Of a stretch of DNA of 20,975 bases, positions 947-12,309 are shown in pieces. The translations under genes were made by a program, and so were the position numbers. The stretch lies in IMG/VR virus record IMGVR_UViG_2728369187_000006, positions 1-20,975 of that record; one strand, given 5' to 3'. The stretch's first letter is position 1; every line of letters begins with the position of its first letter. This DNA is from a virus (Duplodnaviria; Heunggongvirae; Uroviricota; Caudoviricetes). The notes below the pieces were generated by a model, which was not told the origin of the DNA, did no database searches, and was given only the letters and a program-made list of their open reading frames with translations.

Positions 947-2680
947 TTAAAGCGAGCGGATCCCGTAGGACTCAATGTGGTCAGACAGCGTGTCTTCTTT
1001 CTCGTACAGCATGGCTCTGCCAACCGCCATAATCAGCGTAACTGCACCATCGATTTTGTTTTCCGCCTGCTCTTTGACGGGTTTCACCACGTCATCGTTA
1101 CCCGGAATGGTTTTGCCGACCACGTTGCCGATACACCAGGTCATGATGGGATTGCCGTCATGATGAAAGCGCCCCGATTCAATTGCCGCTTCCAGCTCTT
1201 TCATCGGGTCGGACATGTTGGTGTAGTTCTGAATGATAGTGATGGGGTTCAGGTCTTCATCAGCAAGGTCATGTGACAACCCGGTCGCCCCGAAGGGGTC
1301 GATGGGTGACTCACTGACCGGGCTGATTTTGTTCGCCGCTTTGGCCTCCTCGAGGATGTAGCGATAATCCACCTCCGCACCATCGGTAACGGTCAGAACG
1401 CCCATTTCCACCCATTTCTGAAAGCGTTCGGCTGTCCGTCGATCTTCATTTTTCTCGACGCTGTACACCGTGTCATATGGTACCCAGAAACGCGGGGCCA
1501 CACTGTAGTAATGCGTTTTACCGTCAATCTCGCGGGTATAAAGTCGCGCCATGCTGTTCATATCCAGCTTACGCGCCAGGTCAAAGGCCAGAATGCACGG
1601 CTGCCCCTCGAACTGCTCAAGGGTCAGTGATTTATCCTCGCAGATCTGCCAGCTCACCAGGTTGAAATACGCCGAACGCGCCGACACCCAGATATTGAGG
1701 TGTTTTGTTTTAAAGACGTTTGCCAGACGGGCGTTATTTTTCGCACGCTGCTGCTGACTTAACAAAAATTCGCGATAAACCGACACGCCAATATTTGGAT
1801 TGGCTTTTTCCAGCACCTGCGGGTCGGTCCAGTCGTCACCTTCATCAACGGTATAGATGATCCCGAACAGTTCATCGTTGGGTACCGAACCGTTGAGCAT
1901 CTCGATGACTTCCCGCCGTTTGTCGTAGCACGGCCCCTCAATGTTGTACCCGGCGGTAGTGATAGCCCACATCAGTGGCTGACGTCGCGCCCCCATCCCG
2001 GTAAGCATCGTGGTGTAAAGCGCATCTGTGGCGTGCTCGTGATATTCATCCACCACCGCACAGTGGGGTGATGAACCATCACCGGGGTTACCAATCAGCG
2101 GTTCAAACCGCGCCCCATCCTCCGGACGGTTCATGTTTGAGGCGTTAACCTCAATCCCGAACGCTTCCGTCAGCATGGGTGTGCGTTTACACATCAGTCG
2201 CGCCGGGCGAAAGACTTCCCACGCCTGTTTCTCTGTCGTGGCACCGGAATACACTTCCGCGCCGAACTCGTTATCACAGGCAAAACAATACAGGGCAACA
2301 CCGGCAGAGATTGCCGATTTGCCGTTCTTACGGGGGATTTCGGTATACACCTCCCGGAAGCGGCGCAGCCGGGAGCCTTTATTGACCCAGCCAAACGCGC
2401 AGCAGATCACAAAGAGCTGCCACGGCTCCAGCGTGATGGGCATCCGTTTAAATGCCCACTCACCCTTGGTGTGCGGCAACAGCTGAATAAATTTGGCGGC
2501 CCGTTCAGCCAGATCCTTGTCGAAGCGGTAACGAAACGACTTACTTTTTTCCGCCATCAGGTCATCAAGATGGCGCTGGCAGGCCTGAATCACAAACTGG
2601 CAGGCCACAATCTTTCCGCGCACGACATCCCGGGCATACTGATTGGCAGCATTTACGTTGGGGTAAGATTTCCGGCTCAT
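947..2680 (-). CDS. Terminase large subunit
   Basis: 577-aa ORF whose sequence and length fit phage large terminases (ATPase plus nuclease). Its 5' end overlaps the small-terminase stop (2677..2680), suggesting translational coupling. Confidence 0.88.
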
Positions 2681-3180
2681 GACTCGATAATTTTCAGAAA
2701 CGGGTTAGTGGCTTTCTTCTTCCCCGCCAGGCCAATCAGACGCTGGCGGCTGCTGGGGTCGAGTCCGAGCATTGCCCCCGTACTGCTCATCTCGGACTCC
2801 TGTTCTTTTTTGGCGGTCAGCTCCGGATTTTTGACCATGCCGCCCATTGCACCGGTGATGGTGTTGCCCTGTCTGGCAATATTTTTCACGGCACGTCGCC
2901 AGAACTCATAGGCCACGCACCACCGCTCAAGCACTGCGAGGTCAGTCACGCACAGCAGGCCCTGACCGCAGAGTTCTTTGGTTGTCAGTTGCCACATGAT
3001 CGTGGCGAGAGGAAGCTCTTCTTCAGCGAACCACTCCGGTGGCTCAACACCTTTGATGGGCGTAAAAACAGGTTCATCTTTGTTCAGGGCTCGCTTGCCG
3101 GGGTTTCCGGCCAGCGCCTTGCGCGCCGTTGGCTTAGGGCGACGCCCGGAACGCCCCACCGTTCCAGCCATATGCGGCAC
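2677..3180 (-). CDS. Terminase small subunit (P27-like family)
   Basis: 167-aa ORF immediately upstream of the large terminase. Basic N-terminus ([22 protein letters not shown]) resembles P27-family small terminases from memory. Confidence 0.8.
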
Positions 3181-3296: not shown

Positions 3297-3647
3297 TTAC
3301 TTCAGCCGTTCACGAGCCGTCTTCGTCTTATGACACGGCCAGCACAGGCTCTGCAGATTGCTGTCTGAATCTGTGCCGCCATGCGCTTTAGGAATGATGT
3401 GGTCAACGGTTTTCGCCTCACGCACCACACCAGCACGCAGACATAACTGACATAAACCTTTGTCACGCTTCAGGACACGCACGCGGATACCGTCCCACTT
3501 CGAACCATAACCGCGCTGATGACGGGATTGTCCTGGCTTGTATTGTTTCCAGCCTTCGCTTTTGTGGCTTTCACAATAGCCTGACGGATCAGTGGTGGTT
3601 TGGCGGCAGCCGCGAACGCGGCAGGCTTTTGGGGTTCGTGGGGGCAT
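3297..3647 (-). CDS. HNH endonuclease (terminase-associated)
   Basis: 116-aa ORF with cysteine pairs and an HNH core (VDHIIPKAHGGTDSDSNLQSLCWPCHKTKT), directly upstream of terS as in HK97-like packaging modules. Confidence 0.85.
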   Translation of the reverse strand: MPPRTPKACRVRGCRQTTTDPSGYCESHKSEGWKQYKPGQSRHQRGYGSKWDGIRVRVLKRDKGLCQLCLRAGVVREAKTVDHIIPKAHGGTDSDSNLQSLCWPCHKTKTARERLK

Positions 3648-3897
3648 AAAACCTCCAATGGTTGAAAGGTGATAGTCCGATAATTAGGCTACTGCGTGCC
3701 ATATTTAACACAACAGCTGAATATTAGGTGCTGATGGTTTACCTGCTCATTTATACAAATAATATATAACTAATCGATAATTTTTTGTATTTCACCTAGA
3801 GTCCTAAGGTTTCACCATTCTGGTCCTTCCATACAATCTAAAAAAATAATAATGTAGACATCGCCGTAATTATGCGGTTTATACCCATAGGTGATTT

Positions 3898-4182
3898 ATG
3901 CCAGAAGTTACAGGTTCTCTCGAAAAAGGATTCGAGATCAAAGAAACTATCTCTGAATTGGTATTTAACCAAGAGGGTTTGGTTATTGACCATTCAGTAC
4001 AGGTTGATGGTGTTACGCATCGTATCGTCAAATATGACAATAATGGTAGCGTCGCCATCCGCTATGATACTGATACAGGTAGCAATTTTTCGCTATCACT
4101 GAACAATGTAAAACTCAAAATGACTGACAACAATGATCCTAAGAATACAGTAACTGCTACGTTCTCAAGGAACGATGGCTAA
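3898..4182 (+). CDS. Hypothetical small protein (moron candidate), opposite strand to the surrounding late genes
   Basis: 94-aa ORF in a visibly AT-rich island, with AGGTGA 3 nt before the ATG and an intrinsic terminator just downstream. No family recognised. Confidence 0.5.
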   Translation: MPEVTGSLEKGFEIKETISELVFNQEGLVIDHSVQVDGVTHRIVKYDNNGSVAIRYDTDTGSNFSLSLNNVKLKMTDNNDPKNTVTATFSRNDG

Positions 4183-4188
4183 TGACAA

Positions 4189-4215
4189 GGGGCGCTTCGG
4201 CGCCCTTTTATCTTA
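4189..4215 (+). terminator. Rho-independent terminator after the moron ORF
   Basis: GC stem GGGCGC-TTCG-GCGCCC followed by TTTTATCTTATT, read directly from the sequence. Confidence 0.7.
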
Positions 4216-4297
4216 TTCAAACCTCAACATAAATTACAATAAATAAGATGCATAGGTTATTATCAAGCGACTTAACCATTCTGGACTTAATTGTTTC

Positions 4298-4558
4298 TCA
4301 TCTTAATTCCATAGAGTGATTTTCTATTTTACGTATATCAGCCTTATCTCGATTGCATTGTCCAAGGGCTGATAACAGACTCACATTTAAATTAAAACTG
4401 GCCCCATATGTCAGCGGTTCTGGAATAACTGGTTGTGGGGTTTCAGCGGTCAGACTCACCGGTAGTGGTATCGCCGGAACTTGTACGTAAACTGTCCGCG
4501 AACTTCCGCAACCGGTCAGCAGCGGCAGCAGGCACAGGACGTGAAGCACAATCATCAT
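4298..4558 (-). CDS. Rz1: Rz1-like o-spanin lipoprotein, overlapping the 3' part of Rz in another frame
   Basis: Internal start (MMIVLHVLCLLPLLTGCGSS...) gives a signal peptide with lipobox LTGC and a proline-rich mature part, in the +1 frame relative to Rz. Start codon choice is uncertain. Confidence 0.55.
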   Translation of the reverse strand: MMIVLHVLCLLPLLTGCGSSRTVYVQVPAIPLPVSLTAETPQPVIPEPLTYGASFNLNVSLLSALGQCNRDKADIRKIENHSMELR

Positions 4559-4835
4559 CCGCAACAGCCACTTTGATATCTTCCTGGGTTCTCTGTGACT
4601 CCAGTGCGATCTGCTGTTTTGCATGCTGGTTAGCCTCCAGAACTGTATTGATGATTTGCATTGATTGCAGGCCGTTATTAGTAATGGCAGTTGCTGATTC
4701 AGCATTTCGTACAGCCTCATCAGCGCGTTTCTTTTCGTGCTGATATTTGCTGTAGTAGTGGTTGGCAGACCAGATAAAAGAACCAATGACAGTAACGAAG
4801 AATGCAGCGATAACCAGCTTATAGCTCAACTTCAT
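4443..4835 (-). CDS. Rz: Rz-like i-spanin
   Basis: 130 aa with an N-terminal TM segment (LVIAAFFVTVIGSFIW) and a charged, coiled-coil-like periplasmic part, immediately downstream of the endolysin. Confidence 0.75.
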   Translation of the reverse strand: MKLSYKLVIAAFFVTVIGSFIWSANHYYSKYQHEKKRADEAVRNAESATAITNNGLQSMQIINTVLEANQHAKQQIALESQRTQEDIKVAVADDDCASRPVPAAAADRLRKFADSLRTSSGDTTTGESDR

Positions 4836-5295
4836 TTACCACCCCACCAGCCTCTTTAAACCGGGCAATCAGGTCACCGATTTTATGTTCATACTGACCG
4901 TAACCAGCACCCGGCAAAGAAGCCCAGATATTACTGCAACGGTCGATTGCCTGCCGGATATCGCCGCGATCAATCATAGGTAAAGCGCCACGCTCTTTAA
5001 TCTGCTGCAATGCCACAGCATCCTGGCTTTTTGGAGAGAAGTCTTTCAAGCCAAGCTGCTTACAATAAGCATCCCACCAGCGTGAAAGAATCTGATAACG
5101 ACCAGCTGCTGTTGATTTAAGTTTCGGGTTTAGTGTGACAAGTTTGCGAGGATGATCGGAGTAATCAGTGAATAGTTCGCCTCCGACAATAACGTCATAA
5201 CCGTAGTTACATGTCGGTTGCCGTCCGTTATCCGTTCCTTCTGACCATGCCACCATATCGAGGAAAGCTTTACGCTGGGAATTTAGTACCTGCAT
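4819..5295 (-). CDS. R: Endolysin, lambda R-type lytic transglycosylase
   Basis: 158 aa, near-identical from memory to lambda R (QRKAFLDM.AWSEGTDNGRQ...GYDVIVGGELFTDYSDHPRKLVTLNPKLKST.AGRYQ.LSRWWDAY...). Confidence 0.93.
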   Translation of the reverse strand: MQVLNSQRKAFLDMVAWSEGTDNGRQPTCNYGYDVIVGGELFTDYSDHPRKLVTLNPKLKSTAAGRYQILSRWWDAYCKQLGLKDFSPKSQDAVALQQIKERGALPMIDRGDIRQAIDRCSNIWASLPGAGYGQYEHKIGDLIARFKEAGGVVNEVEL

Positions 5296-5298
5296 AAA

Positions 5299-5625
5299 TT
5301 ACTCCTTAGAGCCACCAAACTTGTTACCGATTACTCTCATTGCAGCCCCACGAATTGCATCGACCCCGATCAGCCCCACCCCACCACCAATGGCAACAGA
5401 AAGCGATTTAGGCCATCCGACATACTCAAGAGCGGATGCAAAAGTCAGCGTCAGAGCACCACAGAGCAAAATCTCGAGCGTTTTTCGTTTCCAGCCACCA
5501 CCACTGCCAAAATAGGCAATACGTAAACCAGCCATAACGATCGACATAATCACTGCGCCCAGCGGTGTGTCTCCACGCCACCAGCTCTGGACCAACTCCA
5601 GCCAAGTATTTGGGTTATGAGGCAT
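5299..5625 (-). CDS. Putative holin (class I-like, three hydrophobic segments)
   Basis: 108-aa ORF with three predicted TM segments immediately upstream of the endolysin. Not lambda S by sequence; called on position and topology. Confidence 0.62.
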   Translation of the reverse strand: MPHNPNTWLELVQSWWRGDTPLGAVIMSIVMAGLRIAYFGSGGGWKRKTLEILLCGALTLTFASALEYVGWPKSLSVAIGGGVGLIGVDAIRGAAMRVIGNKFGGSKE

Positions 5626-5764
5626 TTGTAGTTATCTCTCACCTCGCTAATACAGCAGGTGCAAATTGAGGGAACATCATGTACCGCAAATCAGAAGCGG
5701 AAACGTCAAAGAAGCCGAACCAATGGATAACTGCGGAATAGGCAAGGACCAACGAATCCCCAGC

Positions 5765-5799
5765 CCCAGAAACGACAAAACCCGCTCGACGGCGGGTTT
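5765..5799 (-). terminator. Intrinsic terminator on the minus strand, candidate tR'-like late terminator
   Basis: Stem AAACCCGC / GCGGGTTT (5778..5785 and 5792..5799) with loop TCGACG; on the minus strand it is followed by TTTTGTCGTTTCT. Sits about 140 nt upstream of the holin start. Confidence 0.5.
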
Positions 5800-5844
5800 A
5801 AGCTGTGTGGCGAAGTAACCACTCTTAACAGATTACAATGTTTT

Positions 5845-5873
5845 TTGCGTACGCGTTAGCATTTTCGTAAAAT
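5845..5873 (+). promoter_or_regulatory. Candidate sigma70 promoter for the cargo operon
   Basis: TTGCGT (5845..5850), 17-nt spacer, TAAAAT (5868..5873), about 30 nt upstream of the 5905 ATG. AT-rich context, so chance matches are likely. Confidence 0.3.
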
Positions 5874-5904
5874 ACATTACCTTGCAACCATTTCAGTATA
5901 AAAA

Positions 5905-7695
5905 ATGAGCACAGAATTAAAACTAAAGAAAATTATGGCATCGTCTAAAATTGAGCCATTTATTAGACATATTCGTTTTCCTTTTTTTAAAAACCTTGCA
6001 GAGGGTAGCAAGATTGATTTTGAGTATCCAATTACAGCATTAGTTGGTCAAAACGGAACCAATAAAAGTTCTGTTTTAAGAGCCCTATTCGGTTCTCCAA
6101 ACAACTATTCTCTGGGTAGCTTATGGTTTTCTACAGATGTAGATGAGATTAAAGATGGTGGTCGTTCTAGATTTATTTATGGATATTATGACAAAGCTAC
6201 TGATTCAATTGTTGAAGTAATTAAAACTCGAATCTCTAAAGAAAATGATCCTGATTACTGGGAACCATCCAGACCATTAAAATCCGACAACATGGCTCCA
6301 ATGCCTAGTACAAAAATCTCAACCAATCAACTAAGGACTAGGTGGAAAGCTATTGACAAAAATGTAATATATTTAGATTTCAGAGCAACTATCAGTGCAT
6401 TTGATAAGTTCTTTTATCACTCTGATTTTCATACATACCCTAAGAAAGATTATCTTAGAAAACGCAGTCAGATGCTAAAAGACATTATAGATAACGATCT
6501 TAAAAAATATCAACCTCATAAAGGAAAAAAAGACAAGCTATTTGTTAACACTTTATTAGAAAAAAGTAAGGTAGAGGCAATCAGCAAGATTTTAGGTCGC
6601 AAATACACAAGCATCCGCCTTATTGAACATAGCTTATTCACTAATGACAAAGCTCCCACAATTATTCTTCAATCAGAAAACTTAAAATATTCTGAAGCTT
6701 TCGCAGGCAGTGGGGAATTTGCTGTATCTATATTAGTGCATAAACTAATGGATAGCCCTGATGCATCTTTAATTCTGCTAGATGAACCTGAAGTATCACT
6801 TCACCCTTCTGCTCAATGTCAATTGATGGAATTTTTATCAGAACAAGCACTTAAAAAGAAACATCAAATTGTCATATCCACACATTCATCAACAATAGTA
6901 AAAGACTTGCCTAAAAATGCCATAAAATTATTCTGTCTGAATGATAAAATAGGAAAGGTTGATGTTCTTCAAAATGTCAGCCCAGAAGAATCTTTCTTTA
7001 TTCTTGGTGAACGCATTGATAAAAGAACCGTTATTGTAGAAGATCGGTTAGCGAAGAGGTTTGTAGAAAAGGCGCTTAAAGCGGGTGGTGAAGCATTATT
7101 AAACTCCTTCGAAGTAAAACATGTTCCTGGAGGAGCGGGAAGTATTCTTCAAACTTTGGCTGTGCCTTTATGTGTTGCCAATGTTAAAAACGTTATTTTC
7201 TTATTAGATGGTGACCAATCGAGAACTGATGATTATCCAACTTCTGATTCCATACCAGAAAATCAAAACACAAACCTTCAAAACATCATAAAAGAAATAA
7301 CCAATCAAGATATAAAATTTAGTTGTGATGGTTCTAATGGCTCATCAAATAACAATCAAAAATACAAAATGCAAAGAAATTTTATCGATTTCATCCACGA
7401 TAAAATTGCTTTTCTTCCTGTTTATACTCCTGAAGCATTTCTTATTGAGAATGTTCATGGTGATTATAAAGAATATAAAGATCAAATCCCCAAAAACATT
7501 CAAGATGCTAAAGAAATCACCAAAGAACTTTGTAAGTTAGACACAGGGTTGGAAAACGTTACCAGTGACGATATCTTTGAAACACAAATCAGAATTCTTA
7601 ATAAAATACCAAATAATCATGAAGTGTTAACAAAAACTCGAGAGTTGCTGCAAATCTTTTTAGATAATGATACTATCAGACCAAGAGTGAGGTAG
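5905..7695 (+). CDS. OLD-family-like ABC ATPase with putative C-terminal TOPRIM nuclease domain (cargo gene 1)
   Basis: 596 aa. Variant Walker A (ALVGQNGTNKSSVLRAL), Walker B with LHP (SLILLDEPEVSLHPSAQ) typical of AAA_21/OLD ATPases, then TOPRIM-like motifs (TVIVEDRLAKRFVE, glycine-rich PGGAGS, DxD-like FLLDGDQ). AT-rich. Family assignment is by eye, not by HMM. Start may instead be ATG 5935. Confidence 0.7.
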   Translation: MSTELKLKKIMASSKIEPFIRHIRFPFFKNLAEGSKIDFEYPITALVGQNGTNKSSVLRALFGSPNNYSLGSLWFSTDVDEIKDGGRSRFIYGYYDKATDSIVEVIKTRISKENDPDYWEPSRPLKSDNMAPMPSTKISTNQLRTRWKAIDKNVIYLDFRATISAFDKFFYHSDFHTYPKKDYLRKRSQMLKDIIDNDLKKYQPHKGKKDKLFVNTLLEKSKVEAISKILGRKYTSIRLIEHSLFTNDKAPTIILQSENLKYSEAFAGSGEFAVSILVHKLMDSPDASLILLDEPEVSLHPSAQCQLMEFLSEQALKKKHQIVISTHSSTIVKDLPKNAIKLFCLNDKIGKVDVLQNVSPEESFFILGERIDKRTVIVEDRLAKRFVEKALKAGGEALLNSFEVKHVPGGAGSILQTLAVPLCVANVKNVIFLLDGDQSRTDDYPTSDSIPENQNTNLQNIIKEITNQDIKFSCDGSNGSSNNNQKYKMQRNFIDFIHDKIAFLPVYTPEAFLIENVHGDYKEYKDQIPKNIQDAKEITKELCKLDTGLENVTSDDIFETQIRILNKIPNNHEVLTKTRELLQIFLDNDTIRPRVR

Positions 7696-7698
7696 ATA

Positions 7699-8739
7699 AT
7701 GGCTAAAAAGATACACGTTTACGATTTCTTTTCCGGCTGCGGCGGAACCAGTGTAGGCCTAAAAGCGGTGGGAATGGAAATTATTTTCGGTTTAGATATT
7801 GATCTAGACTCCGCTAACACCTTTAAAATGAATAATCCATTTGCACATTTTATCAATGGTGATATCAAAGATACACACGTTGAGGAAATTAAGCATCTGG
7901 TTTGTGCGTCAACACAAAGCAAAGCTCTAACCCTATTTTGTGGTTGTGCTCCATGTCAACCATTCTCGAAACAAAATAAAATACGGAACGAGGATGATCC
8001 GAGAAAAGATCTGCTTACTGAGTTTGCACGGTTTGTCTCTTATTATACGCCAGACTTTGTACTGGTAGAGAATGTACCAGGAATCCAAAATGTCGATATT
8101 AACAATGGAAATTTCCAGAAATTTCTTGAGGTTTTAGCACATCATCACTACAACGTTGATTTTGGTGTGATTCCTGCGTTGTGGTTCGGGGTTCCTCAAA
8201 CACGTGAACGTTTTGTTTTACTGGCGTCAAAACACACGAATATTAAGCTTCCATCACAAACTCATGATGGATTAAAAACTCCGTATGCAACTGTCAGAGA
8301 CTGGATCGGCGGATTACCTCCTATTGCTGCCGGTGAAACTCATAAAGATGTTATGGATCATACAGCAGCCAAACTATCTGATCTAAATATTAAACGTATT
8401 AAAGCGACTCCTGAAGGAAAAGGTAGAGAATCTTGGCCTGAAGAACTTATACTAAAATGCCATAAAAAATATAAAGGGCATACTGATGTTTATGGACGGC
8501 TTTCTTGGGACAAACCAGCAAGTGGATTAACAACTAGATGTATAAGCTATTCGAATGGACGTTTCGGACATCCAGAGCAAGATAGGGCTATTTCTGTTAG
8601 AGAGGCTGCGTTATTACAGACTTTCCCATTAGACTATTCCTTCACAGGCTCTTTAGTCTCGAAAGCCAAACAGATAGGGAATGCAGTCCCTCCCAAGATG
8701 GCTGAAGCTCTTGGAAGGGCTATCATCGCATCACTTTAA
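7699..8739 (+). CDS. DNA (cytosine-5)-methyltransferase (cargo gene 2)
   Basis: 346 aa with canonical m5C motifs: I (FSGCGG), IV (PCQPFS), VI (ENVPG), VIII (QTRERF), X (GNAVPP). Starts 4 nt after the upstream stop, with GAGG inside the upstream gene end, so likely translationally coupled. Confidence 0.9.
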   Translation: MAKKIHVYDFFSGCGGTSVGLKAVGMEIIFGLDIDLDSANTFKMNNPFAHFINGDIKDTHVEEIKHLVCASTQSKALTLFCGCAPCQPFSKQNKIRNEDDPRKDLLTEFARFVSYYTPDFVLVENVPGIQNVDINNGNFQKFLEVLAHHHYNVDFGVIPALWFGVPQTRERFVLLASKHTNIKLPSQTHDGLKTPYATVRDWIGGLPPIAAGETHKDVMDHTAAKLSDLNIKRIKATPEGKGRESWPEELILKCHKKYKGHTDVYGRLSWDKPASGLTTRCISYSNGRFGHPEQDRAISVREAALLQTFPLDYSFTGSLVSKAKQIGNAVPPKMAEALGRAIIASL

Positions 8740-8749
8740 AAGCGGAGCC

Positions 8750-9106
8750 CTAGAGGGCTTCGCCTAACAATAATAGAATACCTGATATAAACCCTATAGC
8801 TCCCTGAAGCTCTTTTCTAATTGCTCCATCAGAGCATTTTCTTTTCTTAGCAATGGTGCGTAATGAGATACCAATCACAAAATGAGCAATGATCAGCTCA
8901 TATTCTTCTGGTTTATACTTCCGCAGGCGGGCGACACAGCCATCAATCATGATGCCTTCATCATCATCGCACTGAATCCGGGACTTTCTGCCATGAGGTA
9001 AAAGCCCCTTGAAGCCAGCGGCTACCGGTTGCCAATCCACACCACTGTTCTCTGCCGCAGCCCACGCTCCCCAACGGTCTAATACTTCATACATATCACA
9101 CATCAA
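8750..9106 (-). CDS. Late-gene antiterminator Q-like protein
   Basis: 118 aa with the VLDRWGAWAA...WQPVAAGFKGLL...RIQCDDDEG motif recalled from the prophage antiterminator-Q family. Sits at the expected position after the nin-like region. Confidence 0.7.
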   Translation of the reverse strand: MMCDMYEVLDRWGAWAAAENSGVDWQPVAAGFKGLLPHGRKSRIQCDDDEGIMIDGCVARLRKYKPEEYELIIAHFVIGISLRTIAKKRKCSDGAIRKELQGAIGFISGILLLLGEAL

Positions 9107-9120
9107 CTTTCTCCACCAAA

Positions 9121-10116
9121 TCAGGCTAGCACACCAATTGCCAACGCACGGTCGATAAAACGAAATATCAGCTCCAGCTGGGAGCCATACTTCTCTTCAA
9201 ATGCCACGGTATCCGCATGCAGCTCGTCGTGATGCTTTCTGCACAAAGGCAACACAAAGAGGTCATGCGCTTTTGTACCCATTCCACCCTGACCGTGGCC
9301 TATCAGGTGGTGGGGATCATCAGCAGGTTTTCCACAACATGCGCACGGCTGCGTCTTAACCCAGCGCGTGTACTTTTCATTAACCCAGCGGCGACGTTTT
9401 GGGCGTAACATAAAAGACTCCGGCGACTCCGGATCCACTTTCAGCGCCAGCACCTTTTTCGCCTTATCCTGGATGATGCTGGTGGCAGGAACCGAAGGCA
9501 CCAGGTCACTTTCCCGGGTGACAGATGGCACAACAGGCTTCGGTAATCTCAGTGCCTTACGGGCTGCACTTTCCGGTAAGGCATCCGCCAGATCATTACG
9601 AACCAGCCACCAGCACAGTTCCGGCATTGTCACAACGTGACTATCATCAAAACCGAGATCCCGACGCACAACAGACAACACCCAGCGGGCACAGTTATCC
9701 GTTGCCATTGATTCCAGCCGTTCCGTGAACTGATCGCGCAGCTGGTTATCACAGTGCCAGCACAGACGGATTGCGCCCGGAGCGTGTCGCATTGTGGTAA
9801 TGTTCTCGCTGTGCCAGTCGGAATGAGGCCACTGACAGCCCTTTTCACGAAGTAACCAGCTTTCAAGACATTCCACGCCACCAGCACGACGGATCACTGC
9901 CTCATTGCGGAACACGGCCCGAACGGCAGGATCATCCACCAGCGGTTGTGATGCCGCCGGAACTGCACCACTGGCGAAAGATGAATAACGTTCCGGCTCA
10001 GGCTCCAGCAGGACACGCCCCTGCATAAACAGGGGCATCAACTCTGAACCTGGCCTGAACAATACGATCCCCATACGCGGGGCAACTTCAGGGGTCAGTA
10101 GTGCTCTCACGGTCAC
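9121..10116 (-). CDS. DUF968-family protein (YdfU-like), C-terminal Cys/His-rich putative nuclease-like domain
   Basis: 331 aa with C-terminal CACCGK...HHLIGHGQGG...CRKHHDELH. Resembles DUF968 proteins of E. coli lambdoid prophages from memory. Confidence 0.7.
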   Translation of the reverse strand: MTVRALLTPEVAPRMGIVLFRPGSELMPLFMQGRVLLEPEPERYSSFASGAVPAASQPLVDDPAVRAVFRNEAVIRRAGGVECLESWLLREKGCQWPHSDWHSENITTMRHAPGAIRLCWHCDNQLRDQFTERLESMATDNCARWVLSVVRRDLGFDDSHVVTMPELCWWLVRNDLADALPESAARKALRLPKPVVPSVTRESDLVPSVPATSIIQDKAKKVLALKVDPESPESFMLRPKRRRWVNEKYTRWVKTQPCACCGKPADDPHHLIGHGQGGMGTKAHDLFVLPLCRKHHDELHADTVAFEEKYGSQLELIFRFIDRALAIGVLA

Positions 10117-11336: not shown

Positions 11337-11659
11337 ACTTTCAGGCCTCTCTCATGTAACCAGTGGGCTGCACGCAGCCTGGCGTTTTCCTCACCGGCAA
11401 GCAGTGCGCGGATAATCCCGACCGCCTCGCTGTCGTCGTCCTTCACCGCGGTATGAAGCGTTATCCCCCGGGCCACGCCACGCTTTATCGTGATGACGCC
11501 TTTTTTCTCCAGTGCACGAAGATGCTCTACCGCTGCATTCACTGAACGGTATCCCAGCATGGTTGCCACCTCCTGATTGGTTGGCGGAAAGCCACGCTCT
11601 TTCTGGTAAGAAATCAGCATATCCAGCACCTGCTGCTGGCATTGAGTTAACGTCGTCAT
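11333..11659 (-). CDS. LexA DNA-binding-domain-like protein lacking the S24 peptidase domain
   Basis: Start taken at the internal ATG 11659..11657, which overlaps the upstream TGA as ATGA. LTQCQQQVLDMLISYQKERGFPPTNQEVATMLGYRSVNAAVEHLRALEKKGVI resembles the LexA N-terminal winged helix. Only about 108 aa, with no Ala-Gly/Ser/Lys protease module. Confidence 0.65.
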   Translation of the reverse strand: MTTLTQCQQQVLDMLISYQKERGFPPTNQEVATMLGYRSVNAAVEHLRALEKKGVITIKRGVARGITLHTAVKDDDSEAVGIIRALLAGEENARLRAAHWLHERGLKV

Positions 11660-12309
11660 GCCGCCATCTCCCTGACCAGTTTTTCCGCCTGCTGGCAAAC
11701 CTGCACCAGAAAGGCTTCACCACATGCCTCAAGTTCATCGCGCCCGATGTAGCTGATTGCCGGTCCCTTCCAGGTCTTGTCGAAAACAGCAATAGCACCA
11801 GCGAAGAAAGCGCCTGTCGGCACCTGCTTCTCATCCTTCGGGATAAACCAGGCAGGCAGTTCAAAACCAATACGCCCGCGAATAAAAGCAATATGGTCCG
11901 CATCTTCCGGCCACCACACTTCGCTGGTGGCAGCTTTGATCAGGAAAACATAGCGCCCGCCCTTATCACGCATGGCACTGGCATGTTTCATGATGTAACG
12001 CATGCCGGTGATGTATTGCCCCTCATGCTGACTGGCGCGGCTGTATGGGGGATTACCAAAGGCAGCACCTTTAAGCTCCGCAAGACGTTCTGACCAGTCA
12101 TGCGCCAGCGCGTTATCTTCCGCCGTGTAATACGCGGCACATTTGGCGTTATCACCGTCAGTAAACAGATCCAGAACAAACGGGCCAAACAGGGTGTTAA
12201 TTCCCCAGAAAATGTTGTCCGGCGTGCGCCACTGATCGCCCACTTCCTTCAGTTCATGGGCTGGTTTGTTCCGCAGTTCCACCAGCGCCTGGCAATATTT
12301 ATTACTCAT
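11656..12309 (-). CDS. Phage N6-adenine DNA methyltransferase (Dam-like)
   Basis: NPPY motif (AAFGNPPYSRA) and overall resemblance to phage Dam MTases. Start at ATG 12309..12307 overlaps the upstream stop (TAATG); the ORF-track start at 12342 is less likely. Confidence 0.8.
   Translation of the reverse strand: MSNKYCQALVELRNKPAHELKEVGDQWRTPDNIFWGINTLFGPFVLDLFTDGDNAKCAAYYTAEDNALAHDWSERLAELKGAAFGNPPYSRASQHEGQYITGMRYIMKHASAMRDKGGRYVFLIKAATSEVWWPEDADHIAFIRGRIGFELPAWFIPKDEKQVPTGAFFAGAIAVFDKTWKGPAISYIGRDELEACGEAFLVQVCQQAEKLVREMAA

Follow-up and report, generated by a model that had tools for sequence, protein, structure and literature searches.

Between the Q-family antiterminator and the holin of a lambdoid prophage of Escherichia coli lie two genes, coding for a predicted ATPase-TOPRIM nuclease (AT) and a predicted DNA (cytosine-5) methyltransferase (MT), that form a conserved genetic unit, a conclusion that is well supported by related bacterial and viral loci. 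The window, i.e., the whole stretch of 20,975 nucleotides (nt) that was analysed (IMG/VR record IMGVR_UViG_2728369187_000006, positions 1 to 20,975), is an e14/SfII-like prophage with an HK97-type head, and its interval 5626-8749 is 100% identical to E. coli strain C4. On balance, we favour the view that AT and MT constitute a restriction-modification (R-M)-like defence module of an undescribed kind, in that a methyltransferase with intact motifs is genetically linked to a predicted nuclease, the association by which an R-M system is recognised. The first-pass annotation of this DNA had placed a two-gene cargo between the Q-like antiterminator and the holin, and the interval 5626-8749 proved to be exactly this gap, spanning from the holin start codon to the stop codon of the Q antiterminator. 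Both cargo genes lie on the plus strand, the nuclease gene before the methyltransferase gene:

5905-7695, plus strand: nuclease gene AT (ATPase-TOPRIM), 596 amino acids (aa)
7689-7701, plus strand: AT/MT junction, with a GAGG Shine-Dalgarno sequence (7689-7692) within the end of AT, the stop codon TAG (7693-7695) and the start codon ATG (7699)
7699-8739, plus strand: methyltransferase gene MT, 346 aa

They are co-directional, as first described, but their spacer measures 3 nt and not 4, and it had been missed that both are antisense to Q, the holin and every flanking late gene. Such a junction would permit translational coupling.

Linkage of the two genes across genomes

A scan of GTDB r220 (one genome per species, with an alignment of AT as the query) kept 80 loci, 66 of which hold full-length-type AT relatives (32-45% identity); the many phyla represented include Proteobacteria, Bacillota, Bacteroidota, Actinomycetota, Planctomycetota and Patescibacteria. 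A C5 methyltransferase was found by tblastn with MT within a few kb of AT in 62 of these 66 genome loci, and in the four exceptions the AT gene lies at most 0.5 kb from a contig end. Among the IMG/VR contigs with an AT relative, 56 out of 57 carry the methylase and the sole exception ends 8 nt after AT. The functional coupling that had been proposed for the pair is supported by its presence in every informative related locus across phyla. Nothing separates AT from MT in 42 of the 62 genome loci, both gene orders occur, and the gap between the genes in related loci ranges from -35 to approximately +100 nt, with several 4-nt overlaps. The reciprocal look-up returned four MT homologues (57-69% identity) in six places, with AT or an AT remnant directly upstream in all six. 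Moreover, loci with an AT closer to that of the window tend to have a closer MT as well (Spearman approximately 0.7-0.8). A correspondence between the target-recognition region of MT and a particular region of AT was considered and discarded, as all regions co-vary alike (rho 0.65-0.8), which fits co-inheritance; since they do so about equally, no inference on specificity is made. The catalytic motifs of the methylase (PC(Q), ENV and FxGxG) are intact in 122 out of 122 loci, which argues that active methylation is required.

The association has a boundary near 33% identity, because relatives at 27-31% identity (L071-L073, approximately 548 aa) are found without a C5 methylase, so the methylase linkage defines a clade. 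Of these outlying relatives, one is flanked by genes for GmrSD and an N6-methylase and another is followed by a Hypoth_Ymh (HEPN-like) protein, contexts that recall those of ‘embedded’ HEC genes. Among 1.84 billion representative proteins, the AT clade amounts to approximately 395 clusters (50% identity, E ≤ 1e-30); it corresponds to phrog_3940, which is annotated as ‘unknown function’. A megablast search of 5,426 complete E. coli genomes found this allele in eight and a second allele in ten (60% identity for AT and 66% for MT, with the divergence focused in the AT C-terminus, at 23-47% identity), and neither AT nor MT occurred alone in these genomes at that sensitivity. No AT relative is encoded in 50,697 GenBank phage records, and a search for phages with DNA close to the locus matched only the 250-nt backbone.

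The two genes do not decay alike. In L063 and L069 the methylase is intact and the nuclease is truncated or frameshifted, respectively; in L146, AT is split, beside an insertion sequence, next to intact MT and Vsr genes; and in L148, AT is down to 135 aa, at the same site where L147 has an intact AT of 591 aa. L147 (a Stutzerimonas chromosome) and L148 (a metagenome contig) have identical flanks and methylase, L148 being an ‘R-minus, M-plus’ derivative of natural origin. In L067 and L074 the decay affects AT and MT alike, and none of the examined loci combined an intact AT with an MT that was broken or absent, some of those behind this one-sided pattern being metagenome bins. Such a pattern is indirect evidence that the nuclease may not be tolerated without the methylase, in the manner of a toxin and its antidote.

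In L147 the pair forms an island of its own with housekeeping genes on either side, and in L145 it adjoins a filamentous prophage's integrase, two settings that look like those of mobile R-M units. Vsr, which commonly goes with 5mC R-M systems, accompanies the pair in 15 of the 62 genome loci, and four loci have small HTH_3 (controller-like) proteins. A role of AT as a replacement for Vsr was rejected, as Vsr co-occurs with AT in all locus types. In about one-third of the genome loci, other genes are found between or beside the pair:

RE_HpaII endonuclease: eight loci (L015, L016, L032, L042, L051, L052, L055, L058)
SmaI-family endonuclease: one locus (L040)
Cfr10I/Bse634I-family endonuclease: one locus (L063)
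GHKL ATPases (HATPase_c_3), with or without Hypoth_Ymh: five loci, including L013, L023, L027 and L049
HEF_HK and Response_reg_2 proteins: four loci (L028, L033, L037, L038)
UvrD-PD-(D/E)xK fusions near the pair: three distant loci

The name-giving enzymes of the HpaII, SmaI and Cfr10I/Bse634I families all cut CCGG-core sites. The relatives bearing GHKL or HEF_HK proteins appear as multi-ATPase 5-methylcytosine (5mC) systems. GHKL proteins in such loci match the R.HgiDII, R.NmeAIP and R.EcoUTORF4938P types (Orlowski & Bujnicki 2008), as well as the paraMORCs (Iyer et al. 2008), and the HEF_HK companions, too, are of the kinds entered in REBASE as restriction components of these types.

The two proteins and the systems they resemble

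That AT is an OLD-like ATPase, as first proposed, is borne out both by Pfam (AAA_15, 1.5e-15; AAA_21, 2e-13; also SMC_N, all on the ATPase part only) and by the predicted structure. The AlphaFold2 model, built on a 30-sequence alignment of homologues with 43-84% identity, has a mean predicted local distance difference test score of 87.5, and its comparison with the Protein Data Bank (PDB) by Foldseek retrieved for full-length AT the OLD protein of Thermus scotoductus (2e-13), GajA (3.5e-12) and the retron-Eco8 OLD effector (1.2e-10). The C-terminal part matched the TOPRIM region of BpOLD, while topoisomerase I, T7 primase and the TOPRIM of retron Eco2 ranked lower; the TOPRIM region suspected from motifs is thereby found as a fold in the structure prediction, an outcome in favour of the first-pass proposal. 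Sequence and profile searches of the PDB reached OLD, PtuA and AriA via the Walker B region only and left the TOPRIM undetected, and no NCBIfam model matched AT at its cutoff. Among the PADLOC profiles, the best is HEC-04 (1.9e-36, residues 209-470 of 596 against profile positions 155-386 of 494), followed by the retron type I-B ‘ATPase-Toprim’ profile (1e-24, residues 42-484); AriA, PtuA, GajA and Old match more weakly in the Walker B region, ‘Old’ covering residues 286-334 only and AriA the ATPase part only. There is neither a Pfam RE_* family in AT nor a restriction endonuclease profile among its top PADLOC matches.

The motifs quoted in the first-pass annotation were all located, namely GQNGTNKSS at residues 48-56, LLDEPEVSLHP at 291-301, VIVED at 376-380 and FLLDGDQ at 432-438. 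They belong to an N-terminal ABC ATPase (Walker A 48-56, signature-like EAFAGSGEF 264-272, Walker B/D-loop 289-301 and H-loop H327) and to a TOPRIM domain (E379-D380, G410, D435-x-D437 and E510). Invariant among the 30 homologues are G48, N50, G51, N53, K54, S55, S56, E264-F272, D293, E294, P295, H300 and H327 in the ATPase, and from the TOPRIM onward E379, D380, P408, G410, D435, G436, D437, P509, E510 and K536; the catalytic set is kept in about 125 of 127 relatives. A large conserved insert at approximately 64-260, specific to the family, bears the motifs WFST, DPDYWEPSRP, TRW and DFRxxISAFDKFFYH, and the helical C-terminus (approximately 440-596) is fast-evolving. By structural modelling, AT is predicted to be an OLD-type ABC-ATPase/TOPRIM enzyme.

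MT was correctly recognised at first sight as a 5mC methyltransferase, since PF00145 covers residues 6-343 (3e-59) and the motif set is complete: I, FSGCGG (11-15); IV, PCQ (85-87, with the catalytic C86); VI, ENV (124-126); VIII, QTRER (167-171); and X, GNAVPP (327-331). It also matches TIGR00675, the generic PADLOC methyltransferase profiles MTase_II (7e-91) and DruM (4e-82), and in the PDB the sequences of DNMT1, M.HaeIII and M.HhaI. Chance does not account for the Pfam scores of either AT or MT. From its sequence, MT is predicted to be a complete DNA (cytosine-5) methyltransferase of an HgiDII/DruM-like lineage. A Klebsiella homologue with 67% identity carries the source name ‘Modification methylase HgiDII’, and M.HgiDII is the 5mC enzyme for GTCGAC, so that this label is only a hint to the specificity of MT. 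A guess of the recognition site from the window itself was abandoned, as GTCGAC occurs once in 21 kb and GCCGGC not at all, counts too small to mean anything.

The members of the OLD family (P2 Old; TsOLD, 6p74; GajA; retron-Eco8) share with AT the N-terminal ABC ATPase and the C-terminal TOPRIM with Glu and DxD ligands, but only 12-17% sequence identity, and the large insert sets the AT family apart from them. For P2 Old, a tRNase activity has recently been reported. They also differ in their partners, Class 1 having none, Class 2 a UvrD-like helicase and Class 3 a reverse transcriptase and a noncoding RNA, whereas AT has a C5 methyltransferase; the papers on OLD classification and a review list single-gene, helicase-linked and retron-linked classes, with no methylase-linked one. 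AT does not fit the solitary Class 1 because of its constant C5 methylase neighbour. Neither in the window nor in the E. coli copies does a UvrD/PcrA-like helicase of the GajB type, as in Gabija, stand next to the pair, and no reverse transcriptase as in type I-B retrons is found among the annotated neighbours (holin, Q, DUF968 and KilA-N), where no search for the noncoding RNA was made.

HEC-04 and IbfA are, like AT, ABC ATPases fused to a TOPRIM, and HEC-04 provides the best PADLOC profile; they are smaller (approximately 494-518 aa, against 596 aa) and act as single genes, whereas AT has a methylase neighbour. IbfA is known from plasmid R64/pUA1135, and a tblastn search of 72,556 plasmids gave only ATPases of at most 28% identity to AT, with no match at the level of IbfA. 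HEC-04 has been shown by experiment to be antiphage, to need its Walker A and TOPRIM residues and to be toxic when induced (Payne et al. 2024, preprint), and it has been found embedded in methylase-containing Hma systems. In the HgiDII system (M.HgiDII and R.HgiDII), R.NmeAIP and the paraMORCs, the C5 methylase is of broadly the same lineage as MT and has a large ATPase restriction protein next to it, often with Vsr, but R.HgiDII is a GHKL ATPase and AT is an ABC-class ATPase with a TOPRIM nuclease. The fold classification of Type II restriction enzymes contains no TOPRIM or OLD family (Orlowski & Bujnicki 2008). PrrC cuts tRNA and has its place inside a Type I system (EcoprrI), whereas the constant partner of AT is a C5 methylase; in PARIS, the AriA ATPase and the AriB TOPRIM are two proteins without methylase linkage, whereas in AT both parts are fused in a single polypeptide.

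The belief that this pairing had not been described held up, as it matched no characterised system in the databases and literature searched. We found no description of an OLD-methylase pairing in that literature, which did not cover REBASE or a classification of ABC ATPases (Krishnan et al. 2020) where the family may be mentioned. The pair may be regarded as a new OLD class or, equally, as an R-M system with a new type of nuclease, known in both cases from its genes. PADLOC-DB v2.0.0 has no dedicated model for AT, and MT meets only generic profiles, so that defence annotation by PADLOC models is unlikely to report the pair.

Restriction-modification and its alternatives

If the pair is an R-M-like module, it would be a cargo (‘moron’) expressed in the lysogen, with Q on one side and the late leader and holin on the other. 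MT would put 5mC on target cytosines of host and prophage DNA, while AT would use its ABC-ATPase heads for ATP binding and hydrolysis and its TOPRIM site for cutting DNA by two-metal catalysis, attacking incoming DNA that lacks the mark and so protecting the lysogen from superinfecting phages and plasmids. We infer here that DNA is the substrate of AT and that methylation blocks cutting; the target might be recognised by the conserved insert of AT and/or its variable C-terminal helices, or by MT itself. A precedent for ATPase-type restriction is already known in the HgiDII-type methylases and their ATPase restriction enzymes, by analogy with which this role is plausible, and the antiphage activity of HEC-04, the closest described relative at the level of hidden Markov models, likewise favours a role in defence.

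Several points weigh against restriction by AT. P2 Old, PARIS, Gabija and retron Eco8, which are characterised OLD relatives, are infection sensors or abortive effectors and not readers of methylation. No curated OLD or TOPRIM sequence model recognises AT, including the Pfam TOPRIM and OLD-TOPRIM models at E ≤ 0.01, and its membership in the OLD family therefore rests on structure and motifs. The counted loci are phylogenetically non-independent, and the reading is built on genes. A classical Type II endonuclease lies between a single methylase and AT in approximately 10 of the 62 genome loci; in these HpaII-, SmaI- and Cfr10I-type loci, usually with one methylase, the AT relative is the third gene after a complete methylase-endonuclease pair, so AT is not needed there as the restriction enzyme. 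The single methylase of most HpaII-type loci is of another lineage, with 24-30% identity to MT (35-100% for the HgiDII-like ones), yet the AT of these loci is 35-42% identical to that of the window, as in two-gene loci. The partner methylase can be exchanged for one of another lineage while AT shows no corresponding break in sequence, which would be awkward for a sequence specificity borne by AT.

Because AT tolerates methylase swaps and coexists with classical endonucleases, a guard role, or recognition supplied by MT, keeps some probability. A possible, if doubtful, explanation is that AT is a latent toxic nuclease that monitors MT or its R-M complex and fires when a phage interferes, for instance by anti-restriction proteins or S-adenosylmethionine depletion, in a logic comparable to that of PrrC in EcoprrI or of PARIS triggered by Ocr, in which MT would be both bait and antitoxin. 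The companionship of AT with complete classical R-M pairs that share its single methylase (HpaII, SmaI and Cfr10I types), and with other candidate restriction ATPases (GHKL and Hypoth_Ymh; HEF_HK and Response_reg_2), is in keeping with this, as is the exclusive link to C5 methylases of differing lineages, which suggests that a class of enzyme and not a sequence is recognised. So are the sensors and abortive effectors among the characterised OLD relatives, the embedding of HEC-04 in Hma systems, the location of the outgroup relatives, at 27-31% identity, within R-M or defence loci of other kinds, and the C-terminus as the fastest-evolving part of AT, as would be expected of a surface attacked by phage inhibitors. 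Against it, 42 of the 62 genome loci and 55 of the 56 viral ones consist of methylase and nuclease only, with no restriction complex to guard, and the methylase catalytic residues, invariant in all 122 loci, would not be needed by a pure bait; the one-sided decay fits either account. An unlikely variant of both is that AT has no sequence reading of its own and MT is its target-recognition or sensing subunit, the two forming a new type of R-M holoenzyme in which AT, as a ‘Res-like’ ABC-ATPase/TOPRIM motor-nuclease, would be licensed when MT engages unmodified sites or unleashed when MT is blocked. Such an arrangement would explain the link to C5 enzymes only, the tolerance of methylase swaps and the coexistence with HpaII-, SmaI- and Cfr10I-type endonucleases.

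We consider it very improbable that the genes have independent functions and merely travel together, an orphan methylase shielding phage DNA against restriction by the host next to a stand-alone defence gene of the OLD/HEC-04 type. Class 1 OLD and HEC-04/IbfA do defend as single genes, and phages often carry orphan methylases, this prophage itself having an N6-adenine methylase besides MT. What speaks against independence is the linkage in all informative loci, over many phyla, in both orders and also in non-phage chromosomal islands, together with gaps of -35 to +100 nt and overlapping stop and start codons, the correlated divergence of AT and MT (Spearman approximately 0.7-0.8), and the fact that megablast found neither gene alone in the 5,426 complete E. 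coli genomes. Hardly credible, finally, is a role of AT as a DNA-repair accessory of C5 methylation that, like Vsr, would handle the T:G mismatches left by 5mC deamination, or trapped methylase-DNA adducts. Its ATPase would then be likened to those of MutS, UvrA and Rad50, but the places where the pair occurs are prophage cargo sites, the vicinity of integrases and neighbourhoods of the defence type, and the nearest characterised relatives of AT are antiphage proteins.

Should the R-M-like reading be true, the OLD family would gain a class defined by an obligate C5-methyltransferase partner, and the ABC ATPase with TOPRIM would be an added catalytic fold in the R-M repertoire. The two-gene cassette of 2.9 kb would offer a tractable E. 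coli model of how OLD-type ATPase-nucleases discriminate self from non-self, a question that likewise concerns P2 Old and Gabija, and would be relevant to prophage-mediated superinfection exclusion and to unexplained 5mC methylation in E. coli isolates.

The cargo site in the prophage

The phage genes around the cargo lie on the minus strand and also include KilA-N and RusA genes:

947-3180, minus strand: terminase
3297-3647, minus strand: HNH endonuclease
4443-5295, minus strand: spanin and lysozyme genes
5299-5625, minus strand: holin (lambda-type; PF05106, 6e-25)
5778-5799, minus strand: terminator-like hairpin AAACCCGCCGTCGAGCGGGTTT with a T-rich tail, just upstream of the holin (terminator scan)
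5845-5873, plus strand: weak promoter-like TTGCGT-17 nt-TAAAAT, approximately 30 nt upstream of the AT start (inference from the sequence and a four-way alignment)
8740-8749: MT/Q spacer of 10 nt between convergent stops (MT TAA, 8737-8739; Q CTA on the plus strand, 8750-8752)
8744-8761: short palindrome GGAGCCCTAGAGGGCTTC overlapping the MT/Q spacer (read from the sequence)
8750-9106, minus strand: Q-family antiterminator (PF06530, 9e-44)
9121-10116, minus strand: DUF968 protein, immediately upstream of Q, bearing a nuclease motif of the HNHc_6-like kind
11656-12309, minus strand: phage N6-adenine methyltransferase, separate from MT

The prophage hence carries two DNA methylases of unlike chemistry, the C5-cytosine MT and the N6-adenine enzyme.

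The insert seen in the first pass does lie in the Q-holin gap, but its leftmost part of approximately 235 nt (5626-~5858) is conserved phage backbone, common to SfII and other prophages, so that the cargo proper extends over approximately 5860-8749. The stretch 5600-~5858 can be aligned with SfII and the prophage of the second allele, and with strain G1/2 from 5777 on. The suspected AT-richness was confirmed by calculation, with a guanine-cytosine (GC) content of 0.358 for 5860-8749 (0.367 for 5626-8749) versus 0.504 for the remaining window, and of 0.25 (AT) and 0.30 (MT) at third codon positions versus 0.42-0.65 in the flanking phage genes. Horizontal acquisition, which had been read from this bias, would be ancient relative to this Q lineage: AT/MT variants with 82% and 61% protein identity occupy the same site beside co-diverged Q genes, so this phage lineage did not acquire the pair recently. 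It is found at the Q-holin cargo site in prophages of E. coli, Klebsiella, Hafnia and other enterobacteria, always convergent with the Q gene, at 75-100% identity for Q and 60-100% for AT across variants.

SfII (L085, 2786-4400) has a different antisense two-gene cargo at the equivalent Q-holin gap, made up of SfII_50 (340 aa, phrog_9879) and SfII_49 (194 aa, phrog_8257), of unassigned function. Since unlike cargo is borne at the same site, the gap is a cargo-exchange hotspot with conserved flanks. Palindromes analogous to that of the window stand at the same MT/Q-type junction in SfII and in the second allele. The hairpin at 5778-5799 is part of the backbone and not of the cargo, being kept in SfII, the second-allele prophage and strain G1/2, and it probably belongs to the Q-controlled late leader; the cargo would in that case lie between Q and the late regulatory region and leave late transcription uninterrupted. 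The late promoter PR' was not located with confidence in the window.

The promoter scan called no consensus promoter upstream of AT, and promoter-like sites were not above those of shuffled sequences. The TTGCGT hexamer, -35-like with a 3/6 match to the consensus and not called by the consensus scan, is within the conserved backbone, and the -10-like hexamer at the same distance differs, being TAAGAT in SfII and TATTAT in the second allele. An antisense σ-70-like site facing the holin (TTGATA-18-TATAAT, an 11/12 match) occurs within AT at 6484-6513 on the minus strand; it may drive an antisense transcript or be a chance match, given that promoter-like sites in this AT-rich stretch are not enriched over shuffles.

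In strain G1/2 (L002, 5371-5957), the unit of Q and cargo is part of a Stx-phage-like late region. Between this unit and the holin come, in order, a truncated site-specific DNA methyltransferase, three genes for tRNAs (Ile, Arg, Arg), a TerB-like gene and a SASA-family (nanS-p-like) esterase; no stx genes are annotated there. The window itself has a second AT-rich island at 3650-4300 (GC 0.37), between the HNH/terminase and the spanin genes. It holds an antisense open reading frame (3898-4182, plus strand, 94 aa; RefSeq ‘hypothetical protein’, without a Pfam or PHROG match) that looks like another small cargo gene.

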